A stretch of 64,000 bases of DNA from the IMG/VR virus record IMGVR_UViG_3300027612_000506; one strand, written 5' to 3'. Of this stretch, positions 4,450 to 59,964 are shown one piece after another (position 1 is the stretch's first letter; each line of letters starts with the position of its first letter). The notes beneath the pieces are model-generated. The model saw nothing but the letters and a program-made list of their open reading frames with translations, was not told where the DNA came from and searched no databases. The stretch comes from an uncultured virus (IMG/VR IMGVR_UViG_3300027612_000506) (taxonomy: Duplodnaviria > Heunggongvirae > Uroviricota > Caudoviricetes). Made by a program: the position numbers and the translations under genes.

Positions 4450-5046
4450 GTGAAACAAGTAAAGAAAAATGCACATTACATTGATAACAAGGAATTTCTC
4501 AAAGCCATTTCAGAATACCGAGAGAAGCGGCTTGAAGCCGAAGCGGCGGGTGAACCTAAACCGAGAGTAACAAATTACTTAGGTGAGTGTATGGTTAAGA
4601 TTGCCAATCACTTAGCATACAAAGCAAACTTTGTGAATTACACTTTCCGCGATGAAATGATTTTAGATGGGATTGAAAATTGTATTACATACATTGACAA
4701 TTTCGATCCAGAGAAATCTAAAAATCCTTTTGCATATTTTACTCAGATTACATACTATGCTTTCCTGCGTAGAATCCAAAAAGAAAAGAAACAACTAGAT
4801 ACCAAATATAAGTACATCCAGAGTTTGGACATGCAAACATTAATGATGTCGGAAGAAGGCAATGAAGGTTCAGGTGAATTTCTTGAATATATGCGTAAAC
4901 AGATTGACGAAGCCGCAACATTGGATAGAGACCATTCTGAACAAAAAGCAAATGTAATTAAACGCCGTCCGAAATATCTTGATGATAAGGCTGCTTTAGA
5001 ACTTGCTAAAGAAAAGGTAGACGGCATGAAAGAGTTGGATGATTGA
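4450..5046 (+). CDS. gp55: Late-transcription sigma factor gp55
   Basis: HYIDNKEF, NFVNYTFRDEMILDGIENC, NPFAYFTQI; GTG start with GGAG at 4437 (ATG 4435 is an alternative start). Confidence 0.95.
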   Translation: MKQVKKNAHYIDNKEFLKAISEYREKRLEAEAAGEPKPRVTNYLGECMVKIANHLAYKANFVNYTFRDEMILDGIENCITYIDNFDPEKSKNPFAYFTQITYYAFLRRIQKEKKQLDTKYKYIQSLDMQTLMMSEEGNEGSGEFLEYMRKQIDEAATLDRDHSEQKANVIKRRPKYLDDKAALELAKEKVDGMKELDD

Positions 5047-5467
5047 TATGCATGAGTACAGATGTAAAATTTTGAGAGTAGTTGATGGCGACACTGTAGA
5101 TGTGGATATTGATTTAGGTTTTGGTGTATGGCTAAAAAAACAGCGTATCAGATTATATGGTATTGACACACCTGAAAGCCGTACTCGTGATAAAGAAGAA
5201 AAGGTATATGGTCTTAAAGCCAAAGCCTTCCTTAAGGACCAACTTAAAAATGGTGCAACTCTTAAAACATATAAGGATGGTAAGGGTAAGTTTGGTCGTA
5301 TTCTAGGTGAGTTTATTGTGGAATCAGAAGGGTATGATGGTACAATGACGGTAGTCCATAATGTTAACAAACGCATGATTGAAAAACACCATGCCGTAGC
5401 TTACTTTGGTCAGTCTAAAGAAGCCATTGCCGAGGAGCATATTAAAAATCGCCTTTTGGTAGAATAG
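5039..5467 (+). CDS. Thermonuclease (SNase-like)
   Basis: RVVDGDTVD, RIRLYGIDTPE, GKFGRILG. Confidence 0.85.
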   Translation: MIDMHEYRCKILRVVDGDTVDVDIDLGFGVWLKKQRIRLYGIDTPESRTRDKEEKVYGLKAKAFLKDQLKNGATLKTYKDGKGKFGRILGEFIVESEGYDGTMTVVHNVNKRMIEKHHAVAYFGQSKEAIAEEHIKNRLLVE

Positions 5468-5470
5468 TAC

Positions 5471-5499
5471 TTGACATCTCTTTAACTTTTGTGTATAGT
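5471..5499 (+). promoter_or_regulatory. Sigma70 promoter of queE (leaderless)
   Basis: TTGACA 5471, 17 bp, TATAGT 5494; ATG at 5507. Confidence 0.8.
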
Positions 5500-5506
5500 T
5501 TACATT

Positions 5507-6412
5507 ATGAATATTAAATACTCTGAAATTTTTTATAGCTTCCAAGGTGAAGCTGAACTTGCCGGCAAGCCATCTGTGTGGTTACGCTTCTTTGGTTGTA
5601 ACCTTGAATGTAATGGCTTTGGTCAAGATAACCCTGCCGATGAATCCTCATGGGAACTTCCCTTTAAGGATGCAGACTTGTCACTCATTAAAACAGTAGA
5701 AGAACTTCCTGTTTTTAGTAAGGGGTGTGATTCATCTTACTCCTGGTCAAATCGCTACAAACACTTATGTCCTTCCGAATCTGTAGAGGAAGTATGTGAT
5801 AAGATTGAAGCACAACTACCCAATGGTAGATTTGTACAGGATGAACATTCTCCTGGTGCAACTGATACAATGCTTTGTTTTACAGGTGGTGAACCTATGC
5901 TACGGCAAAAACATATGCAAGCAATTGTTGAGGAGTTTATTAAACGGGGTAACTGTCCTAAAACTGTAACTGTAGAAACAAATGGCACTAAGCCCATAAC
6001 TGGTGCATTTAAGGATTGGTTATCGCTTATCACTTATGAGTTGGACATGAGATGGCATTGGGCAATCAGTCCTAAACTTCTTCATACAGCAGGGGAAAAA
6101 GATGCAGTTATTCCCGATGTTATTGTAGGTTATGCAGATGCTTGTTCTAGAGTTACAACTATTCTAAAGTTTGTTTGTAACGGATCAGATGCATCTTGGA
6201 ATGAAATTGATGAGGCATTAAAAAATACTAGTTTAGAGTTTGCAGATATTTCTGATGTAGTATCTTTTCCCGATGTTTGGATTATGCCTGTAGGCGCTAC
6301 TAAAGAACAACAAGAAAGTGTTGTTGATATTGTAATGGAAACAATGCGGCGAGGGTACAAGGTAGCAACTCGTAATCACGCATATGTATTTGGAAATCAG
6401 ATAGGAACTTAA
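5507..6412 (+). CDS. queE: 7-carboxy-7-deazaguanine synthase (radical SAM)
   Basis: EIFYSFQGE, LRFFGCNLEC...GCDS, FTGGEP, ETNGT. Confidence 0.9.
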   Translation: MNIKYSEIFYSFQGEAELAGKPSVWLRFFGCNLECNGFGQDNPADESSWELPFKDADLSLIKTVEELPVFSKGCDSSYSWSNRYKHLCPSESVEEVCDKIEAQLPNGRFVQDEHSPGATDTMLCFTGGEPMLRQKHMQAIVEEFIKRGNCPKTVTVETNGTKPITGAFKDWLSLITYELDMRWHWAISPKLLHTAGEKDAVIPDVIVGYADACSRVTTILKFVCNGSDASWNEIDEALKNTSLEFADISDVVSFPDVWIMPVGATKEQQESVVDIVMETMRRGYKVATRNHAYVFGNQIGT

Positions 6413-6414
6413 TT

Positions 6415-6894
6415 ATGAAATATTCTATGGAATACCCCCATCTTCCTCAACCGCAATATGAATATGATATTACATACAATTTAGGTAATCCGCAAATTGA
6501 ATTATCTTGGAAGAATATTAATCGTATTGTAGATAAAATTGAAGCTCAAGTACGAGACAAAGGTTATACCGCTGTAGTAGGGCTTGCTCGAGGGGGTGTT
6601 GTACCTGCTATTATGTTGAGTCACCGATTAGGAATAAAGTTTGAATCGGTCACATGGCAAACACGGGATGGCGGGTTTCAGGAGATAGGTCGTCTAAATA
6701 ATATCGTTAACCGAGAAAAGGTTTTAATTGTAGATGATATTTGTGACTCTGGGTTAACACTAACACAAGTAAAAGCAAATCATCCAGATGCAGATGTTGC
6801 TGTGTTAGTGACCAAAGTGGACACAAAACTAGTTGACTTTGTAGGTGAGACATATTATAATGATAATCGTTGGGTAGTATTTCCTTGGGAGTAG
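6415..6894 (+). CDS. Type I phosphoribosyltransferase (Gpt-like)
   Basis: GLARGG, PRPP loop VLIVDDICDSGLT, C-terminal WVVFPWE. Confidence 0.9.
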   Translation: MKYSMEYPHLPQPQYEYDITYNLGNPQIELSWKNINRIVDKIEAQVRDKGYTAVVGLARGGVVPAIMLSHRLGIKFESVTWQTRDGGFQEIGRLNNIVNREKVLIVDDICDSGLTLTQVKANHPDADVAVLVTKVDTKLVDFVGETYYNDNRWVVFPWE

Positions 6895-6896
6895 AT

Positions 6897-7577
6897 ATGA
6901 AAATAAGTGACAAAATTAAACAGCGTCTTGAATTGGACGCATATCGGTATCATGCCGCGGATAATATTAGTCAGTATATACATGAGGGAGAACATACTCT
7001 TTTAATTGATGAAGTATCTGAAAAATTTGAGGCTGTATTACAGAGTCTTGTAATTGATACTGAGGATGATCCTAATAGTAATGGAACTGCTCGTCGTCTT
7101 GCTAAGATGTATATTAATGAAATTATGGGTGGTCGTTATTATCCTAGTCCTAAAGTAACATCATTTCCTAATGATGGGCAGTATGACCAACTAATAGTCG
7201 TTCGTTCTGATATTAAGTCGATGTGTTCTCATCATCACCAACCCGTAACAGGTATTTGTTATATCGCCTGTATGCCGGGTGAGAATCTTATTGGGCTGTC
7301 TAAGTACACCCGAATCGCACAACACCTTGCATCTCGTGGACACTTACAAGAAGAACTAACAGAAATGATTGCTAGTGAGATTGAGCGTCTTACACATTCA
7401 CCTGCTGTTGGTGTTTACATTAGAGCAAGACACGGGTGTTGTGAAAACCGTGGCATTCGTTCATCTAACAGTGCCACACAAACTACTGTTCTTAAGGGTG
7501 CATTAAAAAATGACCCTGCTCTAAAGAACGAGTTCATGCACAATATTCAAATACAGGAGAATTTGTGTAATGGATAA
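6897..7577 (+). CDS. folE: GTP cyclohydrolase I
   Basis: TARRLAKMY, SMCSHHH, GLSK, QEELT, HGCCENRG. Confidence 0.95.
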   Translation: MKISDKIKQRLELDAYRYHAADNISQYIHEGEHTLLIDEVSEKFEAVLQSLVIDTEDDPNSNGTARRLAKMYINEIMGGRYYPSPKVTSFPNDGQYDQLIVVRSDIKSMCSHHHQPVTGICYIACMPGENLIGLSKYTRIAQHLASRGHLQEELTEMIASEIERLTHSPAVGVYIRARHGCCENRGIRSSNSATQTTVLKGALKNDPALKNEFMHNIQIQENLCNG

Positions 7578-8100
7578 TCAGAAGCAGGTAATGGTTGACA
7601 TTGAAACTCTTAGTGTTCGTCCATATGCCTCTATCCTCTCAATTGGTGCCGTATCTTTTAATGTAGAACAAGGCGTGCTTGACACATTCTATGTAAATGT
7701 AGATGCCAATTCTTGCAAGGACGCAGGACTTCATATCTCCAAGGATACTGTGGAGTGGTGGAGTAAACAAAGCAAGGAGGCTAGACAGGCTTTAACAGTC
7801 AATCCGTTACCTGTTACTGATGCACTACAGAAATTTGCCGATTGGTTTGGCAATGATAAGAAAACTGTAATCTGGGGTAATGGTTCTGCTTTTGACATTT
7901 CTATTCTGGAGTCTGCATATTGGAACACGGGGCTTACTATTCCCTGGTCGCCTTGGAAAGTACAGTGTTATAGAACGGTTCTAAATCTTGTAGGTGTAAA
8001 CAATAGTGCCATCCGTAAAGCCGAGAACGATACACATCACAATGCACTAGATGATGCTATGAGCCAAACTGGAACTCTATTAAAGATCTTGAGGAATTAA
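7570..8100 (+). CDS. DEDDh 3'-5' exonuclease (DexA/Rv2179c-like)
   Basis: MVDIETL, WGNGSAFD, HHNALDDA. Confidence 0.85.
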   Translation: MDNQKQVMVDIETLSVRPYASILSIGAVSFNVEQGVLDTFYVNVDANSCKDAGLHISKDTVEWWSKQSKEARQALTVNPLPVTDALQKFADWFGNDKKTVIWGNGSAFDISILESAYWNTGLTIPWSPWKVQCYRTVLNLVGVNNSAIRKAENDTHHNALDDAMSQTGTLLKILRN

Positions 8101-8322
8101 ATGTCATATCCATATACTAAAAATCTAAGACATTTCACTGATTTGAGACCTGTGCCGGCAATGAACAAGTTACACATTGAAGGGCAGGACCATCATGGTA
8201 AAAAAACGGTCACAAATGTTCTTGACTTTGATGCCGCAAATCTATATAATTTACTTAATGAGGTTTACAATTTAGGTAAATCAGATAAAGCAAATGAAAT
8301 TAGAAAGGCATTAGAACTATGA
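8101..8322 (+). CDS. Hypothetical protein
   Basis: Directly abuts both neighbours; RBS GAGGA. Confidence 0.55.
   Translation: MSYPYTKNLRHFTDLRPVPAMNKLHIEGQDHHGKKTVTNVLDFDAANLYNLLNEVYNLGKSDKANEIRKALEL
8209..8250 (+). promoter_or_regulatory. Internal sigma70 promoter driving the denV-like/dpdA/dpdL/GT/queD genes
   Basis: GTCA, TTGACT 8222, 17 bp, TATAAT 8245. Confidence 0.7.
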
Positions 8323-8867
8323 ACATTTTTTACTTGCATGAGAAGCCCGAAACTTGCGCTCAACTACATTGTGACAAGCATGTGGTTAAGATGATTATTG
8401 AGTATGCACAGTTGATGTCTACGGCACATCGTGTACTAGACGGTGACCTTTACAATGACAAGACTAAAAATGGTCGCAATATTAAACGGTGGCGCCTTAG
8501 TAGTGACAATGCCGAGTCTGTAATTTACAAAGCATCCCACATTAATCATCCTTCAGGTATTTGGACTCGTGCAACGGATGAAAATTACAAATGGCTTTAT
8601 GCGCTGTGGCTAGAATTGTGTAAAGAATACACACACCGTTATGGTAAGAAACATCTTACACAGGAAAAACTAGAGCATATACTATGTAACACTCCTACTA
8701 ACATTCCCTCTGGTCCTCTTACGGAAGTCCCACAGGCGATGCCCGATGATGTTAAGACAACAGATCCTATTAAGGCATATAAATCTTATTATCGTCAATA
8801 CAAACAGGCGTTTGCTAAATGGACAAACCGCCAGACACCAGAGTTTATGTTATGTCCCACACACTAG
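8319..8867 (+). CDS. Pyrimidine-dimer DNA glycosylase family (DenV-like)
   Basis: MNIFYL...HCDKHVVKM..EYAQL, HINHP, EYTHRYGK, PQAMP. Confidence 0.75.
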   Translation: MNIFYLHEKPETCAQLHCDKHVVKMIIEYAQLMSTAHRVLDGDLYNDKTKNGRNIKRWRLSSDNAESVIYKASHINHPSGIWTRATDENYKWLYALWLELCKEYTHRYGKKHLTQEKLEHILCNTPTNIPSGPLTEVPQAMPDDVKTTDPIKAYKSYYRQYKQAFAKWTNRQTPEFMLCPTH

Positions 8868-10120
8868 AATATGTAGTATCAGGCACAAGTTATATGCGTC
8901 TTAGCAATCCTCAGGTATCCAAGTCACCTGAGAATGTTGCTATGATTAATGACTTGTTCACAAAATTTGTACACAACCAGAAGGGACATACTTTTTCTGC
9001 TCTATACAATGCATATCAAGAGTCCAGTTTCGGTGAGAGATTTCAGCCGTATAAAAGTGCAATTAAAAATATACATGCAGACTCAGGTGGTTTGCAGATT
9101 GTTACTCTAGGCAAAACTATCACTGAGGAACTTAAAGATAAAATCTATGAAAATCAGGCTAAGTGGTCTGATGTAGGTATGTGCTTTGATGAGATTCCGG
9201 TTGTGTTGACTGATGGTAAGTCCGACAGAAATGATGTTAATGCAAGGTATTTTGACTTTGATAATTATGAGGAAATGGCTCGTAAGACAGGTCGAAATAT
9301 TAAACGACAATTAGAAATTTTTGAGAAAAACAATAGCACTTGTAAACCCTTTGCAATTTTACAAGGAAATTGTTATGACACTTATATGACCTGGTCAGAG
9401 CAATTGTTATCTGAGGTGCCTCAGGGCTGGCACGAGCGCATTGGTGGCATAGCAATGGGTGCGGCCGCACTAGGTACAGGTCCGCTAGAGGATGTTAAAC
9501 GAGCATTTATTGCTAGTCAGATTCCTTTGCGTAACAAACAAGGTAAACTACACTTACACATTCTAGGGGTAGGTTCTATTCGTAGACTTATTCCTTATCT
9601 TATCTTTTGTCAGAATGGATTGTACGACCACATCGAAATCTCATATGATAGTACAACACATAGTCGAGCGGCAGAGACAGGGCTATACTTTATGGGCGAT
9701 AAAACTATTAAGTATGGCAGAGAGTGGTCAGACTTGTATCAGACTTTTTATGATGACATCGAAAAGACTGAGCCAGTAGGGTGTAGCATAAAGGACTTTT
9801 ATGCTATTCTAAACTCAGGTTCAGAAAAATGGAAAGAGTCTGGTGGGGATTTTCACATGTGGCTTAGAGTAAGATACTTGTTTGTGTTGTCTAGTATTCG
9901 TAATTTTATGCATCGGGTTGACCAATTGATGAATGACCCAGAAGAAATTTTACGCTTTACGGGCAAACTGAAACTTGAACATCAATTTAGAAACCTGTAT
10001 AATGTAAAGACAGTCGAGGATTTTAAGCGATGGGAAAGCGACCAATACTTAGGGGGTAGCATGAAGTCGATGGCTGTTAAGAGTCAGGCACCTGCAACAT
10101 TGGAAGGATTATTTGGATGA
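8852..10120 (+). CDS. dpdA: TGT-fold base-exchange enzyme, DpdA-like (7-deazaguanine DNA insertion)
   Basis: TGT motifs ADSGGLQ, FDEIP, ILQG, HILGVG, SYDST; no C-terminal Zn-binding Cys cluster; inside the que cluster. Confidence 0.75.
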   Translation: MSHTLEYVVSGTSYMRLSNPQVSKSPENVAMINDLFTKFVHNQKGHTFSALYNAYQESSFGERFQPYKSAIKNIHADSGGLQIVTLGKTITEELKDKIYENQAKWSDVGMCFDEIPVVLTDGKSDRNDVNARYFDFDNYEEMARKTGRNIKRQLEIFEKNNSTCKPFAILQGNCYDTYMTWSEQLLSEVPQGWHERIGGIAMGAAALGTGPLEDVKRAFIASQIPLRNKQGKLHLHILGVGSIRRLIPYLIFCQNGLYDHIEISYDSTTHSRAAETGLYFMGDKTIKYGREWSDLYQTFYDDIEKTEPVGCSIKDFYAILNSGSEKWKESGGDFHMWLRVRYLFVLSSIRNFMHRVDQLMNDPEEILRFTGKLKLEHQFRNLYNVKTVEDFKRWESDQYLGGSMKSMAVKSQAPATLEGLFG

Positions 10121-10470
10121 GAAAAAACTTAATTAAAGTTAGCTTTCAAAAAGAGGGTATACATCAGTATCCCGCGGCTAAAGATTTAAAGGGTGTAGAG
10201 TTTTTACAATACCCACATCGACACATGTTTCATTTTTATGTTACACTAGAAGTATTCCATGATGATAGGGATGTAGAGTTTATTCTGTTTAAGCGTGAAC
10301 TTGAAAATTTATTTGAGGATGGTACAATGCAAGCAAACCATAAATCATGTGAGATGCTTGCAAACGATTTGTTAGATTATGTAGAAGTAAACTATCCTAA
10401 TCGTGGGTGTAAAGTTGAGGTATATGAGGATGATGAGAATGGTGGAATTGTTTACAACGAGCTTTATTAA
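10117..10470 (+). CDS. QueD-paralogous T-fold protein, DpdL-like (putative CDG decarboxylase)
   Basis: LQYPHRHMF matches LxxxHRHxF; SCEMLA; EDDENG; a true QueD is encoded separately. Confidence 0.7.
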   Translation: MRKNLIKVSFQKEGIHQYPAAKDLKGVEFLQYPHRHMFHFYVTLEVFHDDRDVEFILFKRELENLFEDGTMQANHKSCEMLANDLLDYVEVNYPNRGCKVEVYEDDENGGIVYNELY

Positions 10471-10534
10471 ATTCTTTAAAACCGAGGATAAGGTTGAAGT
10501 TCGTTGTATTTGGGACTTGGAGAATGAAGGATGA
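10439..10534 (+). CDS. Putative 31-aa peptide MVELFTTSFIKFFKTEDKVEVRCIWDLENEG
   Basis: GAGGA RBS; its stop overlaps the next ATG (ATGA). Confidence 0.35.
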   Translation: MVELFTTSFIKFFKTEDKVEVRCIWDLENEG

Positions 10535-11625
10535 TTTACTTAGTTGATCTTGAGTATGTAGAGTCTCGTTACACATCACAATGGAAAACAGAATTTCCTG
10601 CGCTTTTTAAGTGGCATGGTCTTGATGTGAAAGTCATTGAAGGTCCTGCTGATATTGCCGCATGTACTACACCAGGTGCGTTTCTTAACTTCTCAGGTAC
10701 AAATGTATATAAAGCAGAGCAAGTAAAAAGAATTGCCAACCTCTTTACATCTAATGATATTAAAGATGGTGACCAGTTTGTATTTGCGGATGCATGGCAC
10801 CCTGGTGTAATTAATCTTAAATATATGGCAGAACTATTAGGCATTAAGATTAAAATTCATGGTCTTTGGCATGCAGGTAGTTATGACTCTCAAGATTTTC
10901 TTGGTCGATTGATAGGCAATGCTGGATGGGTAAGACATGCTGAAAAAAGTATGTTTGAATGTTATGATTATAATTGGTTTGCTTCTGACTTTCACATTGA
11001 TTTGTTTATAGAGGAAATGCTTGATACAGATAAAAGAACTGGGCGTATTCGTTATATGGATACTGCAAAAGGTAAAATCTCAAAAACTGGTTGGCCTATG
11101 GATTATCTGCACAATGAGATCTCTTGCGATAAAGTAGGAACAAATAAAGATGATATAATTTTGTTCCCACATCGTATTGCACCTGAAAAACAACCAGAGA
11201 TTTTTGAGGACTTAGCAAACGAACTACCTGAATATCAATTTATCTTTTGTCAAAAAATGAATCTGTCTAAGAAAGAATATCATGCATTACTTGGTAAGGC
11301 AAAAATGGTATTCTCTGCTAACACGCAGGAAACATTGGGCATTGGTTGTTTCGAGGCTTTATGTGCAAATGCAATTCCATTAGTCCCAGATAGATTATCA
11401 TATACTGAGATGTACTATTCAGAGTTTAAGTATGACAGTGAATGGACTGAGAGTATGGATAGTTACATGAAACACAAGGAAAAACTTATTAGCCGTATTC
11501 GTAATTTAATGAGTAATTATAGTACAGATGCTGTACAAAGTGTAATAAATACAAATAGAGAATTTTTAGAATGTGATTATTTTTCTGCTGAAAGTCTAGT
11601 AGAAAAAATTAAAGAGGTGATGTAA
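10531..11625 (+). CDS. GT-B (GT4-like) glycosyltransferase
   Basis: HRIAPEKQP, SANTQETLGIGCFEA (E-x7-E), VPDRLSYTE. Confidence 0.8.
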   Translation: MIYLVDLEYVESRYTSQWKTEFPALFKWHGLDVKVIEGPADIAACTTPGAFLNFSGTNVYKAEQVKRIANLFTSNDIKDGDQFVFADAWHPGVINLKYMAELLGIKIKIHGLWHAGSYDSQDFLGRLIGNAGWVRHAEKSMFECYDYNWFASDFHIDLFIEEMLDTDKRTGRIRYMDTAKGKISKTGWPMDYLHNEISCDKVGTNKDDIILFPHRIAPEKQPEIFEDLANELPEYQFIFCQKMNLSKKEYHALLGKAKMVFSANTQETLGIGCFEALCANAIPLVPDRLSYTEMYYSEFKYDSEWTESMDSYMKHKEKLISRIRNLMSNYSTDAVQSVINTNREFLECDYFSAESLVEKIKEVM

Positions 11626-12083
11626 TGTATTATTCAACAAAGACTTATGGACACGAACGCGGCTTATCTTGTGCGTTTAGACAACCCCTAGCTAGTCATT
11701 CACACTGTAGTCTTATTCATGGTTACAGTCTCGCTTTCAGTTTTAAATTTGCCGCTAGAAACCTAGATGATAAAAACTGGGTAGTAGACTTTGGCGGTCT
11801 TAAGGATCTCAAAAATTGGCTAGAGAAAATGTTTGACCACACATTGGCTGTGGATAAAGATGATGTTAATCTCAAAGATTTTCTAGAGTTAGAAGAAAAG
11901 GGCTTGGCTGTTGTTCGTGTTATGAATGGTGTCGGGTGTGAGAAATTTGCCGAACATGCTTTCTGGTTTGCTGATGAGTTAGTCAAGACAATGACTGATG
12001 GTAGATGTCGTTGTGTTTATGCTGAGTGTAGGGAACATGGCGCAAACTCAGGCATTTATGAACCAGAGGTAATTGAAATTTGA
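11625..12083 (+). CDS. queD: 6-carboxy-5,6,7,8-tetrahydropterin synthase
   Basis: HCSLIHGY, WVVDFG, FDHT, GCEKFA. Confidence 0.9.
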   Translation: MYYSTKTYGHERGLSCAFRQPLASHSHCSLIHGYSLAFSFKFAARNLDDKNWVVDFGGLKDLKNWLEKMFDHTLAVDKDDVNLKDFLELEEKGLAVVRVMNGVGCEKFAEHAFWFADELVKTMTDGRCRCVYAECREHGANSGIYEPEVIEI

Positions 12084-14812: not shown

Positions 14813-15349
14813 ATGGATTTAGATAATTTAGAACTACTTGACTTTGGTAATGAAGCGCTCAAAACTCCTCCTAAGTTTTTCAACTTTGAGGAACATGATG
14901 CTAAAGAAGTGTGTGAAGCACTATTTAAAAAGCAACATGAATTGAAGGGTATCGGATTATCTGCAAACCAAGTTGGTTTGGATATGCGAGTGTTTGTGTT
15001 TGGTGATGGTACACCAGAAGGATTGACTCGTTATATTATTAATCCAGAAGTTATTGATGTGGGTCAAGAAACTGATGTTATGAAAGAGGGCTGTCTAAGT
15101 ATACCGGGAGTATATTTAATGGTAAGACGGCCTACAAGTGTAACTGCATCTTATCAGGATATTACAGGTAATAATGTAACTGAAACTTTTACTAACCTGG
15201 CTGCAAGAGTATTCCTACATGAATACGACCATATGCTAGGACAAAACTTTACACAACGAGTGTCCAAATTGAAATTAGATAGAGCTATTAAAGCGGTGAG
15301 AAAAAAGGTTGAAAAAAACACTCGCAAACAAGGAGTATTTAATGGCTGA
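14813..15349 (+). CDS. def: Peptide deformylase
   Basis: GIGLSANQVG, EGCLS, HEYDH. Confidence 0.95.
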   Translation: MDLDNLELLDFGNEALKTPPKFFNFEEHDAKEVCEALFKKQHELKGIGLSANQVGLDMRVFVFGDGTPEGLTRYIINPEVIDVGQETDVMKEGCLSIPGVYLMVRRPTSVTASYQDITGNNVTETFTNLAARVFLHEYDHMLGQNFTQRVSKLKLDRAIKAVRKKVEKNTRKQGVFNG

Positions 15350-15710: not shown

Positions 15711-16284
15711 TACAACAGCAACAAAGGGATATGTTAACCAGCCTTTAGGGCAAGTACATCATTTCTATATCTCAGGTGAAATTACTGAGGCAGAAAATTA
15801 TACCGAATGGTTTAGTATTATGCGAGCCGCCGGTCCAATGGATATTATATACATTCATTTAAATTCTGAAGGTGGTGATGCATTTACTACAATTCAGATG
15901 ATGAGAGCTCTCAATGAATCTGAGGCTAAGGTCATTACTTCTGCTGAGGGTATGGTTGCATCGGCAGCCACAATGATTTTCCTCTGTGGAGACCAGTGTG
16001 AGATCTCGGACCATTCGGTATTCATGTTTCATACCTTCTCCTCATTCTCATATGGTAAGAGCAGTGAGATGCAAGCGCAGGTCAAACTTGAGGCTTCATG
16101 GGGTGAGAAACTAGTCAAATCTGTGTATGGAGGATTCCTTACAGATGCTGAAATGGCGTCACTTTTGGACGGAAAAGACTACTGGATGGAAGCCGAAGAT
16201 GTGCTGGAACGGCTAAAAAATAAAAAACTTGTTGAAGAACAAGGACCTACAGCACCTAAAAAAGGTACAAGAAAACGAAAATAG
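15694..16284 (+). CDS. ClpP-like serine protease
   Basis: HLNSEGG, ASAAT nucleophile, FMFH, DYWM. Confidence 0.8.
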   Translation: MSESNNTTATKGYVNQPLGQVHHFYISGEITEAENYTEWFSIMRAAGPMDIIYIHLNSEGGDAFTTIQMMRALNESEAKVITSAEGMVASAATMIFLCGDQCEISDHSVFMFHTFSSFSYGKSSEMQAQVKLEASWGEKLVKSVYGGFLTDAEMASLLDGKDYWMEAEDVLERLKNKKLVEEQGPTAPKKGTRKRK

Positions 16285-29523: not shown

Positions 29524-29900
29524 GCGACTATCAATACGATGTAGACCAATTTATGCTGGCGGCAGGACAAATGCCTCTATATGGCACAATGCCGCAAGAC
29601 ATTGAGGCACAAGCCAAACTTTATATGGATCTAATTACCGAGGAGTATAATGAAACTCTCGAAGCCTACAAGGCAGGTGATAAGGTTGAAATTGCCGATG
29701 GTCTTGCCGATATGGTATGGGTTATTATGGGAATGGCTACCACTTTAGATATTCCTTTTGATAGAGTTTGGAATGAGGTTCGTGCGTCTAACATGAGCAA
29801 ATGTATTGAGGGTAAAGTCATTAAAGATCCTGATACAGGTAAGGTACTGAAACCCGACGGTTACTTCCGTCCTGACATTGCTAAGGTACTTAGTTCATAA
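29520..29900 (+). CDS. MazG-like NTP pyrophosphohydrolase (PRA-PH-like)
   Basis: EEYNE...EIADGLAD, SNMSK, GKVLKP. Confidence 0.8.
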   Translation: MSDYQYDVDQFMLAAGQMPLYGTMPQDIEAQAKLYMDLITEEYNETLEAYKAGDKVEIADGLADMVWVIMGMATTLDIPFDRVWNEVRASNMSKCIEGKVIKDPDTGKVLKPDGYFRPDIAKVLSS

Positions 29901-37247: not shown

Positions 37248-37568
37248 ATGTCTAAAACACTTGAAGAAGGCAGCACATATGCAAGTGCTGATTTGGATGG
37301 TGATGGTGTCGTAACAGACGAAGAGCTCGCTAAACACGAGCGAATGATTATGATAGAGAATGAAGATAAGAAACAGGATGCACAACGAAATATGGCATGG
37401 TTTGCTCTTGCCGGCATGTTGTTGTATCCTTTCGCAGTAGTTATTGCATATGGTTCCGGTTTCGATGGAGCGGCTACAATCCTAGGTGACATGGCAGCCA
37501 CTTATTTTGTTTCGGTCGCCGCAATTGTCGCCGCATTTTACGGCTCACAAGCCTTAGGTAAAAAATAA
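37248..37568 (+). CDS. Two-TM holin-like membrane protein with an EF-hand-like loop
   Basis: DLDGDGVVTDEE, then two hydrophobic helices and a basic C-terminus. Confidence 0.5.
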   Translation: MSKTLEEGSTYASADLDGDGVVTDEELAKHERMIMIENEDKKQDAQRNMAWFALAGMLLYPFAVVIAYGSGFDGAATILGDMAATYFVSVAAIVAAFYGSQALGKK

Positions 37569-47467: not shown

Positions 47468-47751
47468 TTTCCTTTAAAGAATATTTAGAAGAAGATAAGG
47501 GCATGGAAGGTATGACCCAAGGTGGTGGTCATAAACGCCCTACTGATAAAGGTGCCGGTCTTACTAAAAAGGGTGTCGAAAAGTATCGTAGACAAAATCC
47601 AGGAAGTAAACTGCAAACCGCAGTAACTACGCCTCCTAGTAAACTAAAGCCTGATAGTAAAGCGGCTAAAAGAAGAAAATCCTTTTGTGCCAGATCTAAA
47701 GGTTGGACAGGTGAGCGTGGTAAGGCTGCCCGCAGAAGATGGAATTGCTAG
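47464..47751 (+). CDS. Small basic phage protein, probable head protein
   Basis: MISFKEYLEE; KRRKSFCAR...RRWNC. Confidence 0.65.
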   Translation: MISFKEYLEEDKGMEGMTQGGGHKRPTDKGAGLTKKGVEKYRRQNPGSKLQTAVTTPPSKLKPDSKAAKRRKSFCARSKGWTGERGKAARRRWNC

Positions 47752-47752: not shown

Positions 47753-48526
47753 ATGGAAAACTTCAAAGAATATATAGATGAAGACCTACGCAAATGGTTC
47801 GGCAAAGGCAAAGAAGGCGATTGGGTCAGAGTAGACACAAAAGGCAAAATAAAAGGTGATTGTGCTAGAGAGCCAGGTGAAGGCAAACCCAAGTGTATGC
47901 CACGGTCAAAGGCACACAGCATGGATAAGGATGACAGAGCTAAGGCTGCCAGGAGAAAGCGTAGAGAAGATCCTGTTGCGGATCGCAAGGGTAAGGGCGG
48001 CAAACCAGTTATGGTTGCCACTGAAGATACTATTGTAGAGAAGAATGTTCCTACTAAACCTGCGTTATGGGCAAAGTATAAAGCACAAGCAAAGTCAAAA
48101 TTTGATGTTTATCCTTCAGCATATGCTAATGGCTGGGCTTCTAAAATGTATAAGAAGGCGGGTGGTAGTTGGAAAACTGTATCTGAAGGTAAAGAGCATT
48201 CTTGGAAGTCTGAAGGTCATTACACCAAAGACGGCGAGGAATGGACAGGTCCACAACATGCACATAATGGTCAGGTAATGACAGGTGAAAAGCATACCGC
48301 TGATAGTCAAAACTTATATCACTACAAAGAGCTATCTAAAGAAGCGCAGAATAAAGTAGAGAAGAAGCACGAAAAAGTTGACGAGGATTGTTGGAGCGGT
48401 TATAAGCAAAAGGGCATGAAAAAGAAGGGTAAGAAGATGGTACCTAATTGTGTGCCTGAGTCCTTCAGAACTCGTAATAGAGTTACTGAAAGCACACCTA
48501 AATCCTCAGATTACTGGAAATTATAG
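47753..48526 (+). CDS. Modular basic protein, probable head protein
   Basis: MENFKEYIDE; LRKWF, KFDVYPSAYANGW and CWSGY...VPNCV modules. Confidence 0.65.
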   Translation: MENFKEYIDEDLRKWFGKGKEGDWVRVDTKGKIKGDCAREPGEGKPKCMPRSKAHSMDKDDRAKAARRKRREDPVADRKGKGGKPVMVATEDTIVEKNVPTKPALWAKYKAQAKSKFDVYPSAYANGWASKMYKKAGGSWKTVSEGKEHSWKSEGHYTKDGEEWTGPQHAHNGQVMTGEKHTADSQNLYHYKELSKEAQNKVEKKHEKVDEDCWSGYKQKGMKKKGKKMVPNCVPESFRTRNRVTESTPKSSDYWKL

Positions 48527-49130: not shown

Positions 49131-50525
49131 ATGTCATATAAAAACGAAATGCAGACGATGCGAGCCGTTCTTCTAGGTGAGGGTGCAGACCGCCGTAAAC
49201 TAGATATGCTCGTTCGTCAAGGTATGATGTCGCCAGCGGCATTACCAATGCTTCACAGAGGCTTAGATAAACTACAAGCCGGGAAAACACTTAGCCCTCA
49301 AGAGCGCGATGCGGTTGCTAAGGTTGTTGATTCATTACTGTACATTGTAACAGGTGATGATACTGTATTCCAAAAAGCTAAAATGCACACACAGAAAAAC
49401 CGTTATCAGACTGAAGAACAAGATCCTCAGATTGCCGATGAAAATCCTGTTACTGAAAATGGGCAGGATGCATTGGATGAGAAAATGGATTTGGCTAAAG
49501 CTGATATGGGAGATGTAATTAAGGATTTTAAAAAGTCTGATGCTCCACAATTCAAAGGTAAGTCTGATAAGAAAAAGCGTGAGATGGCAATTGCCGCTAA
49601 ACTTGGCGCGGAGAAAGAAGATATGAAAGAAGAAGAAAAAATTAAGTGTGACAAGTGTGACGGTAAAGGCTGTAAACATTGTGACGATAAAGGATATCAC
49701 ACAGAAGGTTACTTTAAGTCTTTGGACACAGACCGCCAAGAAAAAGAGCGTCTCGCTAAAAGAAAAAATACAATGATTGCTAATCCTAAGACTCAGAAGG
49801 TTCGTAAAGTAACTCCTGAGCGGGCTAAGTCAGCGGTCAAAAAAGGGTTTGTCTATGCTGAAGAATGGACTGACGCAGAATTGGACGCATTGTTTGAAAT
49901 GGAATATAAAGACAAGTTCCAGGCAATGCTTAAAAAGACAGGCAAATCTTTAGCCAACATGTCTGATGATGAGAAGAAAAAGTTTTTCAATACGGTCGAT
50001 GCCGCACACAAGGCTAAGAATGAAAACTATGTAACTCCCACTGCCGCACAAATTTCAGCAGACGCGAAGAAGGGCGAAAAGAAGCAAAGAACTTCAATAA
50101 CACCCAAGCGCGCTAAAAGTGCTGTCTATAAGAACATGATGGGCGGCGTGAAAGAAGAAATCGAGCAGATTGATGAAGCACCGTCAGCCGCAGATAGAGC
50201 CAGAGCAGCCGCCCGCCGCGATATGAGAAAAGACTCTAAGGGTATGGCGCCAGTTAAAAAAGCTGGTGACTTAGGTGGTACAGGAAAATACAGAGCAAGT
50301 AAGCCCGACAACATTGAAAAACATGGCGGGCACATTGTTACTCAAATGAAAAAGGCCATCACCGTAGGCAAACCAGTTAAGTTTAAAGACGGCACGGAAA
50401 AAGTGGTAAGTAAAGCACATGCCCACAAATACCTTTCCAAGTATATGTCAGGTAAACCTGCACAAAAGGTAGATATGCATGGTGCCCACGATTCACATGA
50501 CGCCTTTATGAAACATGTTTCTTAA
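49131..50525 (+). CDS. Highly charged late protein, probable processed internal head protein
   Basis: Repeated xxE/EE junctions, CDKCDGKGC module, late promoter. Confidence 0.55.
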   Translation: MSYKNEMQTMRAVLLGEGADRRKLDMLVRQGMMSPAALPMLHRGLDKLQAGKTLSPQERDAVAKVVDSLLYIVTGDDTVFQKAKMHTQKNRYQTEEQDPQIADENPVTENGQDALDEKMDLAKADMGDVIKDFKKSDAPQFKGKSDKKKREMAIAAKLGAEKEDMKEEEKIKCDKCDGKGCKHCDDKGYHTEGYFKSLDTDRQEKERLAKRKNTMIANPKTQKVRKVTPERAKSAVKKGFVYAEEWTDAELDALFEMEYKDKFQAMLKKTGKSLANMSDDEKKKFFNTVDAAHKAKNENYVTPTAAQISADAKKGEKKQRTSITPKRAKSAVYKNMMGGVKEEIEQIDEAPSAADRARAAARRDMRKDSKGMAPVKKAGDLGGTGKYRASKPDNIEKHGGHIVTQMKKAITVGKPVKFKDGTEKVVSKAHAHKYLSKYMSGKPAQKVDMHGAHDSHDAFMKHVS

Positions 50526-52980: not shown

Positions 52981-52987
52981 ACATACT

Positions 52988-55691: not shown

Positions 55692-57490
55692 TGGCAAAAC
55701 AAGATTATATGGGTATTCAAATTGACCCTTCCCGGGATGAACTATTTGACAAGCTGGGACTTAACCGGTTAAAAGAAAGTTATATGCGAGATGATGAGAC
55801 ATCTCCACAACAAAGGTTTGCGTATGTAAGTAAACAATTTGGATCTAATCCTGAACACGCACAGAGGCTTTATGAATATTCTAGTAAACATTGGTTGTCT
55901 TATAGTACCCCTATTCTATCTTATGGTCGCAGTAAGCGCGGCATGCCTATTTCTTGTTTTCTTAACTACATTGAAGATACAGCGGAAGGGCTTGTCCAAA
56001 ACTATTCTGAGACCTCTTGGCTCTCTATGCTTGGGGGTGGTGTTGGTATTGGGTTTGGGATTCGTGCGGCAGACGATAAGTCAACAGGAGTTATGCCCCA
56101 TCTTAAAACCTACGATGCAAGTTCCTTGGCTTATCGACAAGGCCGCACTAGACGAGGAAGTTATGCCGCTTACCTAGATATTTCACATCCCGACATCGGA
56201 ATGTTCCTCGAGATGCGTAAACCTACTGGTGACCCAAACATGCGCTGTCTCAATCTCCATCACGGTATCAATATCAGTGATCGCTTTATGGAAATTGTTG
56301 AACGCTGTATGACTGATCCTAACGCCGACGATGGTTGGAATTTGTGTGACCCCCACACTGGTGAAGTAAGAGATACTGTATCAGCGAAGGCACTGTGGCA
56401 AAAGATTCTAGAGTTGCGTATGGAGACCGGTGAACCATACATTCATTATATTGACACAAGCAATCGTTTGATGCCTGAGTTTCAGAAAGAACTTGGGTTG
56501 AAAATCCATCAGTCAAATCTTTGCTCTGAAATTATCCTACCTACAAACGAACAAAGAACCGCTGTATGCTGTTTGTCATCTGTTAACTTAGAATACTATG
56601 ATGCTTGGTCGAAGGATCCTATGTTCCTCAAAGACATGGCAGAGATGTTAGACAATGTGTTACAGTTCTTTATTGACAATGCTCCAGACGCTGTAGCAAG
56701 AGCTAAGTTTTCTGCTACACAAGAAAGGAGTATTGGTATCGGAGCATTGGGATTCCATGCCTATCTACAGAAAAAGAATCTTGCATGGGAAGGCGCTATT
56801 GCTAAAGGCGCTAACATGAGAATGTTTAAGTTAATTAGGAGCAAATTGGATGAAGCAAATATTGAACTTGGTAAAGAGCGAGGCGAGGCTCCTGATGCAA
56901 AGGGCACAGGCAGAAGATTTAGTCATGTTATGGCTATCGCTCCCAATGCTAGTAGTAGTATTATTATGGGAAACACTTCGCCGTCCATTGAACCATATCG
57001 TGCAAACGCATATCGTCAGGACACACTTAGCGGTGCGTATCTCAACAAAAATAAGCATTTGGATAATCTCATTAAGAGTAAAATTGAAGAAAATCCAAAG
57101 ATTGATTATGATGAAACTTGGTCTTCAATAATTGCAAATGATGGGTCAGTACAACATCTAAAATTCTTGGATGAATATGAGAAAGATGTATATAAAACAT
57201 CAATGGAAATTGACCAGCGGTGGGTAATTGAACATGCGGCTGATAGACAGGTATTTATCGACCAAGCACAATCGCTGAACTTGTTCTTCCGCCCTGATAC
57301 AAACATTAAGTATCTACATGCCGTACATTACCTAGCATGGAAACAGGGATTGAAAACTTTATATTATTGCCGTTCAGAAAAACTCGGTAAAGCAGACAAA
57401 GTGTCTAACCGAATTGAGCGACAAATTATTAAAGAAATTGATATGAGTAGTTTGGTAAATGATGAAGAATGCCTGGCCTGCGAAGGCTAA
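55691..57490 (+). CDS. nrdA: Class I ribonucleotide reductase alpha subunit (no ATP cone)
   Basis: PISCF, SNLCSEI, APNASSS, TLYY, C-terminal CLACEG. Confidence 0.95.
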   Translation: MAKQDYMGIQIDPSRDELFDKLGLNRLKESYMRDDETSPQQRFAYVSKQFGSNPEHAQRLYEYSSKHWLSYSTPILSYGRSKRGMPISCFLNYIEDTAEGLVQNYSETSWLSMLGGGVGIGFGIRAADDKSTGVMPHLKTYDASSLAYRQGRTRRGSYAAYLDISHPDIGMFLEMRKPTGDPNMRCLNLHHGINISDRFMEIVERCMTDPNADDGWNLCDPHTGEVRDTVSAKALWQKILELRMETGEPYIHYIDTSNRLMPEFQKELGLKIHQSNLCSEIILPTNEQRTAVCCLSSVNLEYYDAWSKDPMFLKDMAEMLDNVLQFFIDNAPDAVARAKFSATQERSIGIGALGFHAYLQKKNLAWEGAIAKGANMRMFKLIRSKLDEANIELGKERGEAPDAKGTGRRFSHVMAIAPNASSSIIMGNTSPSIEPYRANAYRQDTLSGAYLNKNKHLDNLIKSKIEENPKIDYDETWSSIIANDGSVQHLKFLDEYEKDVYKTSMEIDQRWVIEHAADRQVFIDQAQSLNLFFRPDTNIKYLHAVHYLAWKQGLKTLYYCRSEKLGKADKVSNRIERQIIKEIDMSSLVNDEECLACEG

Positions 57491-58070
57491 AGAAATAGCA
57501 AATAATATCCCCAGAGACAAACGAATTGCAGTAGTTGTCTCTGGGGGTTGGGATAGTGCCGTGTTATGGCACATTGTTTATAATGAGTGTCTTGAGCGCA
57601 GACAAAGTTGTCGCCCATATACTGTACCTAAATTAGATGGGGCTGTACATTGGGCTAATCAAGTATTAACACTATCAGGTTATACCGACACAACAAATGT
57701 TATAGGTAGTGTTGATGCTGAAGATCCCTCTAAATATGTTGCAAGCGGCATCATTGATATCTTTGAAAAGGGATTAGCTGATATTGTTTATGTGGGAGTA
57801 ACGAAATATTATGAAGGTATGGAACCCGACCACGATAGACAACATGCAAGTCAATACAATGCCGAGGATAAATGCCTACAACCTTTTTCTAATATGACAA
57901 AGGATGAGACTGTACAGTTAGGTTTTGATTTGGGTATTGCACAGGGACTGATGCATACCACGCATAGTTGCACAGAACAGGATGTTGGTAGGTGCCAATA
58001 TTGCCAGTGGTGTAAGGAGCGAGAATGGGCATTCAATGCCATTGGTAAAATAGATGAAGGAAGAAACTAA
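57459..58070 (+). CDS. QueC-like PP-loop ATPase
   Basis: VSGGWDS; THSC...RCQYCQWCKER zinc motif. Confidence 0.7.
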   Translation: MMKNAWPAKAKEIANNIPRDKRIAVVVSGGWDSAVLWHIVYNECLERRQSCRPYTVPKLDGAVHWANQVLTLSGYTDTTNVIGSVDAEDPSKYVASGIIDIFEKGLADIVYVGVTKYYEGMEPDHDRQHASQYNAEDKCLQPFSNMTKDETVQLGFDLGIAQGLMHTTHSCTEQDVGRCQYCQWCKEREWAFNAIGKIDEGRN

Positions 58071-58255
58071 TGAAATTTAAAATTTACTCTAGAGATGATT
58101 GTAAGTTCTGCAAAGATGCTAAGGACTTTTTAACTGGTATGGACTATGAGTTTGAGGAGGAAGAACAACCTACAGGAACGGTGCCTCAAATTTATTTAGG
58201 TGAGGAACATATCGGCGGTTATAATGAACTAGTTAAATGGGTGGCTGCACAATAA
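58070..58255 (+). CDS. Glutaredoxin
   Basis: CKFC, TVPQI, IGGY. Confidence 0.9.
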   Translation: MKFKIYSRDDCKFCKDAKDFLTGMDYEFEEEEQPTGTVPQIYLGEEHIGGYNELVKWVAAQ

Positions 58256-59028
58256 TGTTAATTTCCTTTGACGATATAACCCTTAGTGACCGCTTATTAA
58301 CTAAAGTGCCTGATTGGTATCTTTACACATTGGATATTGAAACTGACAAAGGGCATTATCAGATAAATTGGGAAAGTGTAGATAAGTTAGCATTTTACAC
58401 AACATTTCAAATAGGTTTAGGAAACCATGGACCTGTTTCACTGCAAAATTTTTATAACTTACATAATCAAATGCGACAAGAGGAATGGAATAGAAATCAT
58501 TCCTTGGGAACATATAATGACTTGCCTCGAGACGCAAACATTCTTGATATTGGGTGTGGTGTAGGTATTAACAGTTTGATCTTACATAACTACTTACCTG
58601 AGAGTAAATTAAATCTTTTGGATAAGAACGCTGGGTGGGAAGAAGTTAAGGATCAGCCTAGAGATTTTTTAAATGGTTACAATGAGGAATATGTTTTTTA
58701 CAATGACACCAGCTTAACTGAGGAAGCAATTAGACTTAGTAATATGGACTCTGACCGTTTTAGATTTATGACCCCCGACAGTGAGTGGGAACAATATGAT
58801 TTAATTCAGTCTACTTGGTCATATGCATGGCATTATCCTCTTGACATTTACTATGAAAAAGTGTTACAATGCTTAAAACCAGGCGGTAAACTATTGTTAG
58901 ATATTTGGAGAGTTGAAGATGCAGAGCGTATTAGTAAGGATTTAAATTGTGAACCCGAACTAAGTGATTTTCCTATAGAACAAATGGTTTGTGGGCACTC
59001 TAAACGCTTTTTATGGACTAGGAAATAA
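58255..59028 (+). CDS. Class I SAM-dependent methyltransferase
   Basis: ILDIGCGVG, YDLI, LKPGG. Confidence 0.85.
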   Translation: MLISFDDITLSDRLLTKVPDWYLYTLDIETDKGHYQINWESVDKLAFYTTFQIGLGNHGPVSLQNFYNLHNQMRQEEWNRNHSLGTYNDLPRDANILDIGCGVGINSLILHNYLPESKLNLLDKNAGWEEVKDQPRDFLNGYNEEYVFYNDTSLTEEAIRLSNMDSDRFRFMTPDSEWEQYDLIQSTWSYAWHYPLDIYYEKVLQCLKPGGKLLLDIWRVEDAERISKDLNCEPELSDFPIEQMVCGHSKRFLWTRK

Positions 59029-59031
59029 ATT

Positions 59032-59964
59032 ATGAAAATTTTGATAACCGGCTCATCTGGATTCATTGGATCTCATCTTGTTCCAATGCTTAAAAAAGAG
59101 CACCAAATATACCACCTGGACAATGACTTACGAGACCACTTAAAGGTTCGTGAGGAAGTTAGTTATATTAACCCAGATATTATTGTACACTTGGCCGCAC
59201 GAACAGAGGTCGAACAGAGTTTTTATGAGCAAGTAACCTTTAGTGACATTAATTATACTGGCACAGTAAATTTAATTGAGGCTGCCAGAAATTGTAAGAA
59301 TCTCAAAAACTTTGTTTTTGCTAGTACAATGGAAGTATACGGCTGGCAACCAATTAGTGATGAAATAAAAATTAATGGTAAGCCAGAGAAGCATGTTGCA
59401 TTTGATGAAAACACACAGCCTAATCCTAACGCACCTTATGCGGTTGCAAAATATGGGTGCGAGAAATATCTACAGTATGCACATAGATCTTATGGTATGC
59501 CTTTCACTGCTATTCGACAAACAAACTGTTATGGTAGAAAAGACAATGACTTTTTTGTTACGGAGCAAATCATAACACAGATGTTGCATAGTATAAATAG
59601 CGGGTCGAATGAACCTCAAATTAATTTGGGTTACGGCGAACCGTACAGAAACTTTATATATATTGATGACATGTTAGAAGCATGGCACGCCGTAATTTCT
59701 AACCCAGAAAAATGTAATGATGGTAAAATATTTACCATTGGTCCTGACCAACCTATTAAAATTTCCGACTATGTTGATATGATAGCGGAAAAACTAGATT
59801 GGCACGGTACTGTTAATTGGGATACAAAGCCACATAGACCAGGTGAAATATACTGGTTGAACAGTAATCATAATTTGATTACAGAGACTTTAGGGTGGCA
59901 ACCAAGTACAACCTTATCTGATGGGTTGGACAAAACAATAGCAATATGGAAAGACTTACTATAA
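59032..59964 (+). CDS. NAD-dependent sugar epimerase/dehydratase
   Basis: GSSGFIG, HLAA, YAVAK (YxxxK), RNFIYIDD. Confidence 0.9.
   Translation: MKILITGSSGFIGSHLVPMLKKEHQIYHLDNDLRDHLKVREEVSYINPDIIVHLAARTEVEQSFYEQVTFSDINYTGTVNLIEAARNCKNLKNFVFASTMEVYGWQPISDEIKINGKPEKHVAFDENTQPNPNAPYAVAKYGCEKYLQYAHRSYGMPFTAIRQTNCYGRKDNDFFVTEQIITQMLHSINSGSNEPQINLGYGEPYRNFIYIDDMLEAWHAVISNPEKCNDGKIFTIGPDQPIKISDYVDMIAEKLDWHGTVNWDTKPHRPGEIYWLNSNHNLITETLGWQPSTTLSDGLDKTIAIWKDLL

Follow-up and report, generated by a model that had tools for sequence, protein, structure and literature searches.

What allows a few copies of a restriction site to persist in a phage genome from which nearly all others have been removed? 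The question is raised by a 64,000-nucleotide stretch of an uncultured virus (IMG/VR record IMGVR_UViG_3300027612_000506; Caudoviricetes), hereafter the window, which Pfam and PHROG matches identify as part of a T4-like myovirus. The word GCWGC is depleted there, and every surviving copy has its outermost G:C pair doubled by a neighbouring base, with G before the word or C after it. An earlier sequence-only reading had ascribed this footprint to the DNA transglycosylase DpdA, which would modify a G in GGC and thereby shield overlapping sites from host restriction. Our analysis shows that the flank rule is independent of DpdA and of the 7-deazaguanine cassette in which its gene resides. GGC is in fact a special case; what exempts a purged palindrome beginning with G or C is the repetition of its terminal base just outside the site (G|G…C|C or C|C…G|G). 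Positions given below are those of the window unless another record or locus is named, and ambiguity letters follow the usual code (W, A or T; S, G or C; H, not G; D, not C).

Motif counts were compared with synonymous-codon shuffles that preserved every protein and the codon usage, in runs of 500 and 400 shuffles, and are written as observed/expected. In the longer run, GCWGC occurred 13 times against 86.9 ± 5.8 expected (z -12.8). Sites lacking a doubled flank, HGCWGCD, were absent against 58.2 ± 5.5, and the run of 400 gave 0/58.8, far from the expected frequency. The same 400 shuffles yielded 6 one-flank sites against 25.1 (GGCWGCD 4/13.0, HGCWGCC 2/12.1) and 7 doubly flanked GGCWGCC sites against 3.5. 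As the flanked share under the null is about 0.33, the probability that all 13 sites would be flanked is approximately 5e-7.

Seven of the survivors carry both flanks: GGCAGCC at 15963-15969, 22826-22832, 33528-33534 and 37493-37499, and GGCTGCC at 47724-47730, 47944-47950 and 59280-59286 (cores at 15964, 22827, 33529, 37494, 47725, 47945 and 59281). Four have the 5' G only, namely GGCTGCT at 4989-4995, GGCTGCA at 15199-15205 and 58243-58249, and GGCAGCA at 37269-37275 (cores at 4990, 15200, 58244 and 37270). The remaining two, CGCTGCC at 35119-35125 and AGCAGCC at 50204-50210 (cores at 35120 and 50205), have the 3' C only. The sequence-only reading had listed 12 sites, all overlapping GGC or GCC; CGCTGCC, which it had overlooked, obeys the same rule and brings the tally to 13/13.

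All other neighbouring bases were purged alike, both on the 5' side (AGCWGC 1/26.6, CGCWGC 1/13.8, TGCWGC 0/30.5) and on the 3' side (for example GCWGCT 1/25.7). Unflanked GCWGC had vanished from every reading frame (0/47.1, 0/2.8 and 0/7.7 for frames 0, 1 and 2), indicating that selection operates at the level of DNA. The pattern supports the earlier proposal that restriction avoidance had purged GCWGC through synonymous recoding, the survivors being defined by their flanks. Ala-Ala dipeptides were not depleted (95 versus 84.5), and their first codon was GCC or GCG in 84 of 95 pairs as opposed to 279 of the 1224 Ala codons without a following Ala, which bears out the codon preference first noticed by eye. 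Because of this shift, GCSGC shows a compensating 2.8-fold excess (130 against 46.6 ± 5.5, 500 shuffles). The accompanying remark that every GCSGC contains GGC is a tautology and carries no evidential weight. Likewise, all six GCATGC sites were flanked as had been claimed, but about 62% of such sites are flanked under the null (6.0 of 9.6), and the difference is not significant (p ~0.05).

If DpdA were responsible, the footprint should accompany its gene. Searches with gp46 and DpdA provided 135 related loci in 29 lineages, and whole records of relatives were analysed in addition. DpdA was called absent on the basis of tblastn with the window protein together with protein searches; the Tgt hidden Markov model missed two DpdA-positive control records and was unusable as a detector. 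The relative G006 is 100% complete (165,127 bp, with terminal repeats), and tblastn with the window proteins found in it no DpdA, FolE, QueD, QueE or phosphoribosyltransferase, nor either of two cassette open reading frames (ORFs) of 117 and 364 aa. Its footprint is nevertheless the same: HGCWGCD 0/140.1 (by frame 0/120.9, 0/4.3 and 0/14.8), one-flank sites 18/52.9, GGCWGCC 31/4.9 (z 12) and GCSGC 186/71.5. A second record without a DpdA match, G002 (116 kb, 70% complete), gave 0/88.5, 19/31.5 and 17/3.2 for unflanked, one-flank and doubly flanked sites. One-flank sites occur in both orientations (4/2 in the window, 9/10 in G002, 7/11 in G006), on which ground a Type III or Type IIS enzyme was rejected.

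Altogether, the footprint was present in eight larger records without a DpdA match (G002, G006, G008, G009, G010, G014, G016 and G018) and in two smaller lineages that lack a cassette in the interval between gp55 and gp47. In the latter, unflanked, one-flank and doubly flanked sites numbered 0, 2 and 5 against 14.8, 6.1 and 0.6 expected (L040 cluster) and 0, 4 and 2 (L045 cluster). Sites moreover turn over within the rule. A homologous stretch was identified in G002 for 28 of the 49 sites in G006; a core is kept there in 16 cases and not in 12, and flanks change between the two genomes within the rule. The rule is therefore actively maintained in a clade free of DpdA.

Conversely, DpdA occurs without the footprint. 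Five DpdA-positive lineages have purged unflanked sites and retained flanked ones, and six others show no GCWGC purge at all. In G011, which is 99% complete and carries the whole cassette with a DpdA 63% identical to that of the window, GCWGC stood at 243/234.8, GGCWGCC at 1/5.2 and GCSGC at 18/57.4. The DpdA-positive record G013 also lacks the rule, and both have purged GCSGC, a motif that always contains GGC. Across the 29 lineages, purging of GCWGC, GCSGC or ACGT differs and the lists of purged words vary from genome to genome, as pressure specific to each host predicts.

The purged words of the window itself contradict a shield made by DpdA at GGC. GGCC has GGC on both strands and yet is depleted (26/89.6). 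GATC (80/194) and ATCGAT (0/15) are purged too, as is GATATC, so that GA, the second motif known for DpdA of phage CAjan, is not protected either. GGCC is purged in G002 and G006 as well, where nearly all survivors are TGGCC, encoding a Trp-Pro pair that cannot be recoded (loci L222-L230 and L136-L141). Thus, context-specific protection remains a reasonable reading of survivors so clearly defined by their flanks, but its attribution to DpdA at GGC does not hold.

Two flank-conditional patterns of other kinds were seen among DpdA-positive relatives. The 18 GCSGC sites surviving in G011 (loci L231-L239) are nearly all WGCSGCW, with A or T on both sides, and so follow a different rule. One lineage (L087, L029, L027, L026) has no GATC, GTAC or GCSGC, and its GCWGC survives mostly with one flank (17 versus 5.8 expected), never with both.

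How far does the exemption reach beyond GCWGC? For purged palindromes with G or C as their first base, we scored the half-sites of survivors in which the base at -1 equals that first base, leaving out GCWGC, GGCC, CTGCAG, CAGCTG, GGSCC and GGWCC. The rule was seen in 14 related records. Same-base half-sites amounted to 56/90 in G006 (null 0.19, p 3e-19), 255/414 in G014 (p 4e-48), 213/354 in G018 (p 1e-35), 91/154 in G008 (p 1e-25), 72/126 in G010 (p 3e-18), 31/60 in G009 (p 2e-6), 18/30 in G019 (p 2e-6; 58% of this record was examined), 16/26 in G002 (p 1e-6) and 10/22 in G016 (p 2e-3). Five further records, which carry a gene for a TET-associated-type glycosyltransferase (TAGT) considered below, gave 34/78 when pooled (null 0.17, p 3e-8). 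Five records did not show the rule: G011 (20/124), G015 (10/44), G013 (17/82), G021 (5/92, null 0.24) and G022 (7/26), none of them significant. G020, with 0/4 half-sites, and G023, without any purged G/C-start word, were uninformative. The reverse bias of G021 (loci L305-L308) arises because GGATCC and GGTACC are themselves purged there. DpdA status tracks none of these results.

In all genomes tested, non-purged G/C-start motifs were unbiased (0.19-0.21 versus null 0.20-0.22), as were A/T-start motifs; purged A/T-start sites left no survivors in G006. Within G006, G preceded the surviving half-sites of GAGCTC in 6/6, GTGCAC in 6/8, GCTAGC in 3/4 and GTTAAC in 8/18 cases, and C preceded those of CGWCG in 18/30 and CTCGAG in 5/8. 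RCATGY stood at 3/93.7 in this DpdA-free genome (HGCATGY 0/27.8, GGCATGY 2/8.2), and all surviving GCATGY half-sites of the G006/G002 lineage were GGC-flanked. Actual survivors include GGAGCTCC, GGTGCACC and CCAGCTGG. Several exempt sites of the relatives, G|GAGCTC|C, G|GTGCAC|C, G|GTAC|C and C|CGWCG|G, cannot contain GGC. TAGT-positive loci that had appeared fully purged were considered as a counter-example and dismissed. That impression had come from 20-kb pieces; when more sequence of the five records was used, nine surviving GCWGC sites were found with 16/18 half-sites G-flanked, and other motifs showed the rule.

The explanation that we prefer combines restriction avoidance with protection of the DNA at GG/CC steps, GCWGC being one case of an exemption by end-doubling shared across the clade; we regard it as an even call. 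TseI/ApeKI-type restriction-modification systems recognise GCWGC, the core word purged from the window, and we know of no description of these enzymes as blind to GGCWGCC. A host system of this type would press this marine phage to remove GCWGC, and removal would proceed by synonymous recoding, mainly from GCW-GCN to GCS-GCN in Ala-Ala pairs. Sites whose outermost G:C pair is doubled by the neighbouring base would be exempt. The protection would be graded: a site without a flank would not be tolerated, one flank would help in part, and GGCWGCC would be fully protected and serve as an escape route. Because GGCC, with GG/CC inside the site, is purged, the mark cannot sit on the doublet's inner pair. 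A mark on the outer pair, which we would place on the 3' C of CC, fits the GGCC purge; it would fall within C-start sites, adjoin G-start sites and occupy the outermost pair in GGCC. More tentatively, this abundant, uncultured marine clade may carry a hitherto undescribed mark of very short context at GG/CC, perhaps a bulky glycosyl adduct made by a TAGT-like locus without C5-methylase or TET partner, and such a mark might block many restriction enzymes only where it falls on the terminal base pair of a site or immediately beside it.

The same survivors could arise without any DNA modification if the restricting enzymes cut sites with doubled ends poorly, so that their effective target were HGCWGCD. 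We consider this rather unlikely, although it would need no undiscovered gene and is compatible with the GGCC purge. A homodimer that disfavours a single outer base in each half-site would produce the graded pattern over zero, one and two flanks, the strictness with which one-flank sites are removed differs between records, and longer recognition sites often mimic flank effects, as do AGCGCT and TGCGCA within GCGC, YGATCR within GATC and GGNCC within GGCC. Many different nucleases would, however, need one common aversion, for GAGCTC, GTGCAC, GTTAAC, GCTAGC, GTAC, CGWCG, CTCGAG and RCATGY share the rule in a single genome. Equally purged relatives are unbiased, and G021 is even reversed. Nor can G+C-rich flanks as such be the reason, since the equally G+C-rich CGCWGCG is purged (0/1.9 in the window, 0/2.9 in G006). 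The behaviour of a single nuclease could account for GCWGC taken by itself; that so many different sites share the rule, and that equally purged relatives lack it, favours protection of the DNA.

Insertion of 7-deazaguanine at GGC by DpdA, as in CAjan, would shield overlapping GCWGC and agrees with the overlap of all 13 survivors with GGC or GCC. The window does encode a DpdA2-like protein along with FolE, QueD and QueE, and the motifs cited for CAjan are correct: PMC7544227 (Kot et al. 2020) describes preQ0 placed by DpdA at GA and GGC, which blocks HaeIII and EcoRV. Given the footprint in eight records without a DpdA match and in two lineages without the cassette, its absence from the DpdA-positive and GCSGC-purged G011 and G013, the purge of GGCC and of GA-containing sites, and the exemption of sites devoid of GGC, we find this mechanism highly improbable. 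Published levels argue in the same direction. According to PMC10516641 and PMC6884629, phi-ST2 and phi-Grn1 contain 668-816 dPreQ1 per million nucleotides, and DpdA2 enzymes modify less than about 0.4% of G. GGC occurs 1106 times on both strands of the window, whose G number 24846, and would thus involve some 4.5% of G; the published levels are roughly tenfold too low. A cytosine methyltransferase-type enzyme encoded outside the window, either by the phage or as an orphan of hosts throughout the clade, could instead mark GCC and protect GCWGCC, an alternative whose phage-encoded form the sequence-only reading had also named. Precedents exist, as PMC8256090 describes phage C5-methyltransferases (C5-MTs) specific for GpC[C/T] and PMC12783734 a CmoX of a T4-like cyanophage whose mark at GC prevents cutting by HhaI; relatives of the window also carry a glycosyltransferase of the TET-associated type (PF20691, E 5e-43). 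We nonetheless judge such an enzyme improbable. The C5-MT family PF00145 had no match in the window or in any of five related records, including the complete G006, under conditions in which control genomes were matched. Neither C5-MT nor TET was found among 28 ORFs within 7-10 kb upstream of TAGT in loci L143 and L145. If the first C of GCC were marked, the modification would occupy the position that protects against HaeIII, yet GGCC is purged, and the purge of GCWGCT excludes GC[C/T] as the context.

Which gene might protect GG/CC steps? A phyletic profile of 215 G006 ORFs singled out three that are present in at least three of four near-complete records with the rule and in neither complete record without it: the TAGT-like glycosyltransferase, the 127-aa ORF upstream of it, and an ORF for a PRA-PH/MazG-like NTP pyrophosphohydrolase (29520-29900, plus strand). 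TAGT was absent from the complete G011 and G015, with G006 as positive control. With its 127-aa neighbour it is the one candidate left that tracks the rule, though weakly and with a sampling bias. The MazG-like ORF is weakened as a candidate by its absence from G019, which shows the rule. A TAGT with adjoining C5-MT and TET was rejected on the basis of the ORFs upstream of it in L143 and L145, the PF00145 results and the G006 ORF scan, and no homologue of CmoA or CmoX was found in the window or the complete relative.

A number of results, the failure of the MazG-like ORF and of PF00145 among them, weigh against a phage-encoded DNA mark. No TAGT emerged from the 64-kb window, from the roughly 15 kb that follow downstream (a stretch beyond the window end that is syntenic with 24-35 kb of G006) or from the 58% of G019. 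Its link to the rule is biased in that 13 of the 14 positive related records had been found by TAGT search, and TAGT-positive records may represent one clade sharing hosts, in which a host factor is inseparable from a phage gene. Pfam detected no TET, N6 or N4 methylase or TGT in 114 G002 and 61 G006 ORFs, and no modification enzyme with known DNA target was found in the records scanned. Placing the mark on the outer pair requires that it block some nucleases from beside their sites. Finally, the rule outside GCWGC is marginal in the window itself (11/38 half-sites, null 0.16, p 0.037).

Besides the TAGT gene, G006 carries a second, weaker TAGT-like glycosyltransferase gene directly after ThyX (L222:16450-17313), as well as genes for a dCMP deaminase and a serine hydroxymethyltransferase. 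In combination, these genes are a hint of chemistry that modifies pyrimidines.

As such, the purge is an instance of classical restriction-site avoidance. Avoidance of short palindromes by virulent double-stranded DNA phages was reportedly established in classical work of Sharp, Karlin and Rocha, and is said to have been surveyed by Rusinov et al. in 2018. As in those cases, palindromes are strongly depleted relative to a codon-preserving null, the depletion is achieved by synonymous recoding, and the set of words varies among relatives. Unlike in classical avoidance, the purge in the window depends on the adjoining base, a doubled end G:C exempting the site in a graded manner, and in relatives GGCWGCC is in 5-6-fold excess. 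In a search on GCWGC, phages and restriction, and in a paper on BisI examined for flank effects, we found no earlier description of a graded, flank-conditional exemption that is general across sites.

Known modification systems offer partial parallels. The window shares with CAjan a phage transglycosylase, here a candidate, and genes of the preQ0 pathway, and the CAjan modification is sequence-specific and blocks restriction (PMC7544227). In contrast to CAjan, however, the window protein falls into the distant DpdA2 group, GA and GGCC sites are not spared, and footprint and DpdA occur without each other. The DpdA2 group includes Vibrio phages nt-1, phi-ST2, phi-Grn1 and VH7D (Hutinet et al. 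2019, 2023); the portions of PMC6884629 and PMC10516641 consulted give no target motif for it. An alignment of the window protein with proteins of phi-ST2, phi-Grn1 and ValKK3, whose loci lie next to folE, covers more than 90% of it at 28-30% identity, and FolE, QueD and QueE are common to the window cassette and DpdA2 systems. The window differs from the DpdA2 Vibrio phages in showing no visible QueF, ArcS, DpdM or canonical QueC, and in adding a phosphoribosyltransferase and two conserved ORFs. Relatives of this cassette may be on record already in the supplements to the DpdA papers, where phages and subfamilies of DpdA are tabulated. The C5-MT/TET/glycosyltransferase systems (Burke et al. 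2021, PMC8256090) and 5-carboxymethylcytosine made by CmoA/CmoX at GC (PMC12783734) are bulky marks added after replication at short motifs. They belong to marine and T4-like phages, and relatives of the window share the PF20691 glycosyltransferase. Unlike them, neither the window nor G006 has a homologue of C5-MT, TET, CmoA or CmoX, and the context proposed here is GG/CC rather than GC.

Should a DNA mark underlie the exemption, the context it targets could be deduced for uncultured phages from their sequences alone, and a widespread group of ocean phages would possess new anti-restriction chemistry; with a mark at GG/CC, the flank-conditional purge would be a direct readout of its motif. If it reflects nuclease behaviour, GCWGC-type and other enzymes are predicted to discriminate an outer base in a manner so far unrecognised. 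Either way, the result cautions against crediting a footprint to whichever known modification gene lies closest, as the DpdA cassette of the window does not explain the pattern.

The cassette occupies 5489-12083, between a gp55-like gene and gp47, and like all genes called in the window lies on the plus strand. Its order is QueE-like, purine-type phosphoribosyltransferase, FolE, exonuclease, DenV-like, the 433-aa TGT-related protein, the 117-aa and 364-aa ORFs, and QueD. The QueE-like radical SAM gene (5489-6412) matches phrog_2076 (E 4.9e-48) and TIGR04508 (E 1.8e-13), the xanthine/hypoxanthine-type phosphoribosyltransferase (6415-6894) PF00156 and NF006613 (E 7.7e-18), FolE, a GTP cyclohydrolase I (6870-7577), PF01227 (E 1.6e-38), and the QueD-like 6-pyruvoyl-tetrahydropterin synthase (11625-12083) PF01242 and phrog_2389 (E 1.3e-37). 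The 433-aa candidate for a DpdA2-type DNA transglycosylase (8819-10120) belongs to phrog_10773 and reaches 29 bits (E 4.2e-7) against TIGR00430 Tgt, for which the cut-off is 307; a Pfam scan of the window gave it no TGT match. Its homologues in Vibrio phages phi-ST2, phi-Grn1 and ValKK3, as well as in Stenotrophomonas phages, are 28-34% identical to it; some homologues are annotated as queuine tRNA-ribosyltransferase, and homologues adjoin folE or queC.

The two ORFs at 10117-11625 (117 aa, 10117-10470; 364 aa, 10531-11625), to which no function was assigned, stand out by synteny: they come after DpdA in most DpdA-positive relatives with a contig that extends over them, although in one sub-lineage (L125, L127) the longer ORF, of 364 aa, had no match. 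Neither has a Pfam or NCBIfam match. Both ORFs may have an accessory role in DpdA2 systems. A 203-aa QueC-like protein is encoded far from the cassette (57459-58070), its QueC match being limited to the C-terminal 60 or so residues; homologues are present in the DpdA-free G006 (50% identity) and in G011. The cassette may accordingly be devoid of true QueC and yield 7-carboxy-7-deazaguanine (CDG) rather than preQ0, or may use a host enzyme.

Further words are purged from the window. ACGT (0/150), AAGCTT (0/24) and, with them, TGCGCA, GCTAGC and GTCGAC are absent, and AGCT is depleted (106/218); the purge status of ACGT varies among related lineages. Depletion of GATC depends on its flanks in another way. 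YGATCR is nearly gone (3/50), RGATCY forms are near expectation (AGATCC/GGATCT 23/24), and the pattern suggests pressure of a YGATCR type, as from a BclI/PvuI-like set, rather than on plain GATC. GCGC was rejected as a second GGC-shielded motif, its flank effect being due to the 6-mers AGCGCT (1/7.0) and TGCGCA (0/6.7) and to forms containing CGCG; AGCGCA stood at 15/15.9.

With a G+C content of 38.8%, the window encodes a T4-type core of UvsY, UvsW, UvsX, a gp55-like sigma factor, gp46/47, gp45, gp44/62, gp43 polymerase, gp41 helicase, primase, RegA, NrdAB and ThyX. Megablast of 7.7 kb against phage records gave no match. Among isolates, the nearest are Synechococcus and Prochlorococcus myophages, the OM43 phage Melnitz and a Stenotrophomonas phage, with protein identities to the window of only about 50%; closer uncultured relatives are numerous in IMG/VR. 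Auxiliary genes of marine type specify a peptide deformylase, a CobS-like AAA protein, HSP20, TauD and 2OG oxygenases. Genes for radical SAM, SPASM and B12-binding radical SAM proteins are unusually many, both in the window (34302-35876 and 59946-62201) and in G002 (L136:10110-18776), and G002 additionally carries a gene for a NifU-like Fe-S scaffold (L140:7190-7612).

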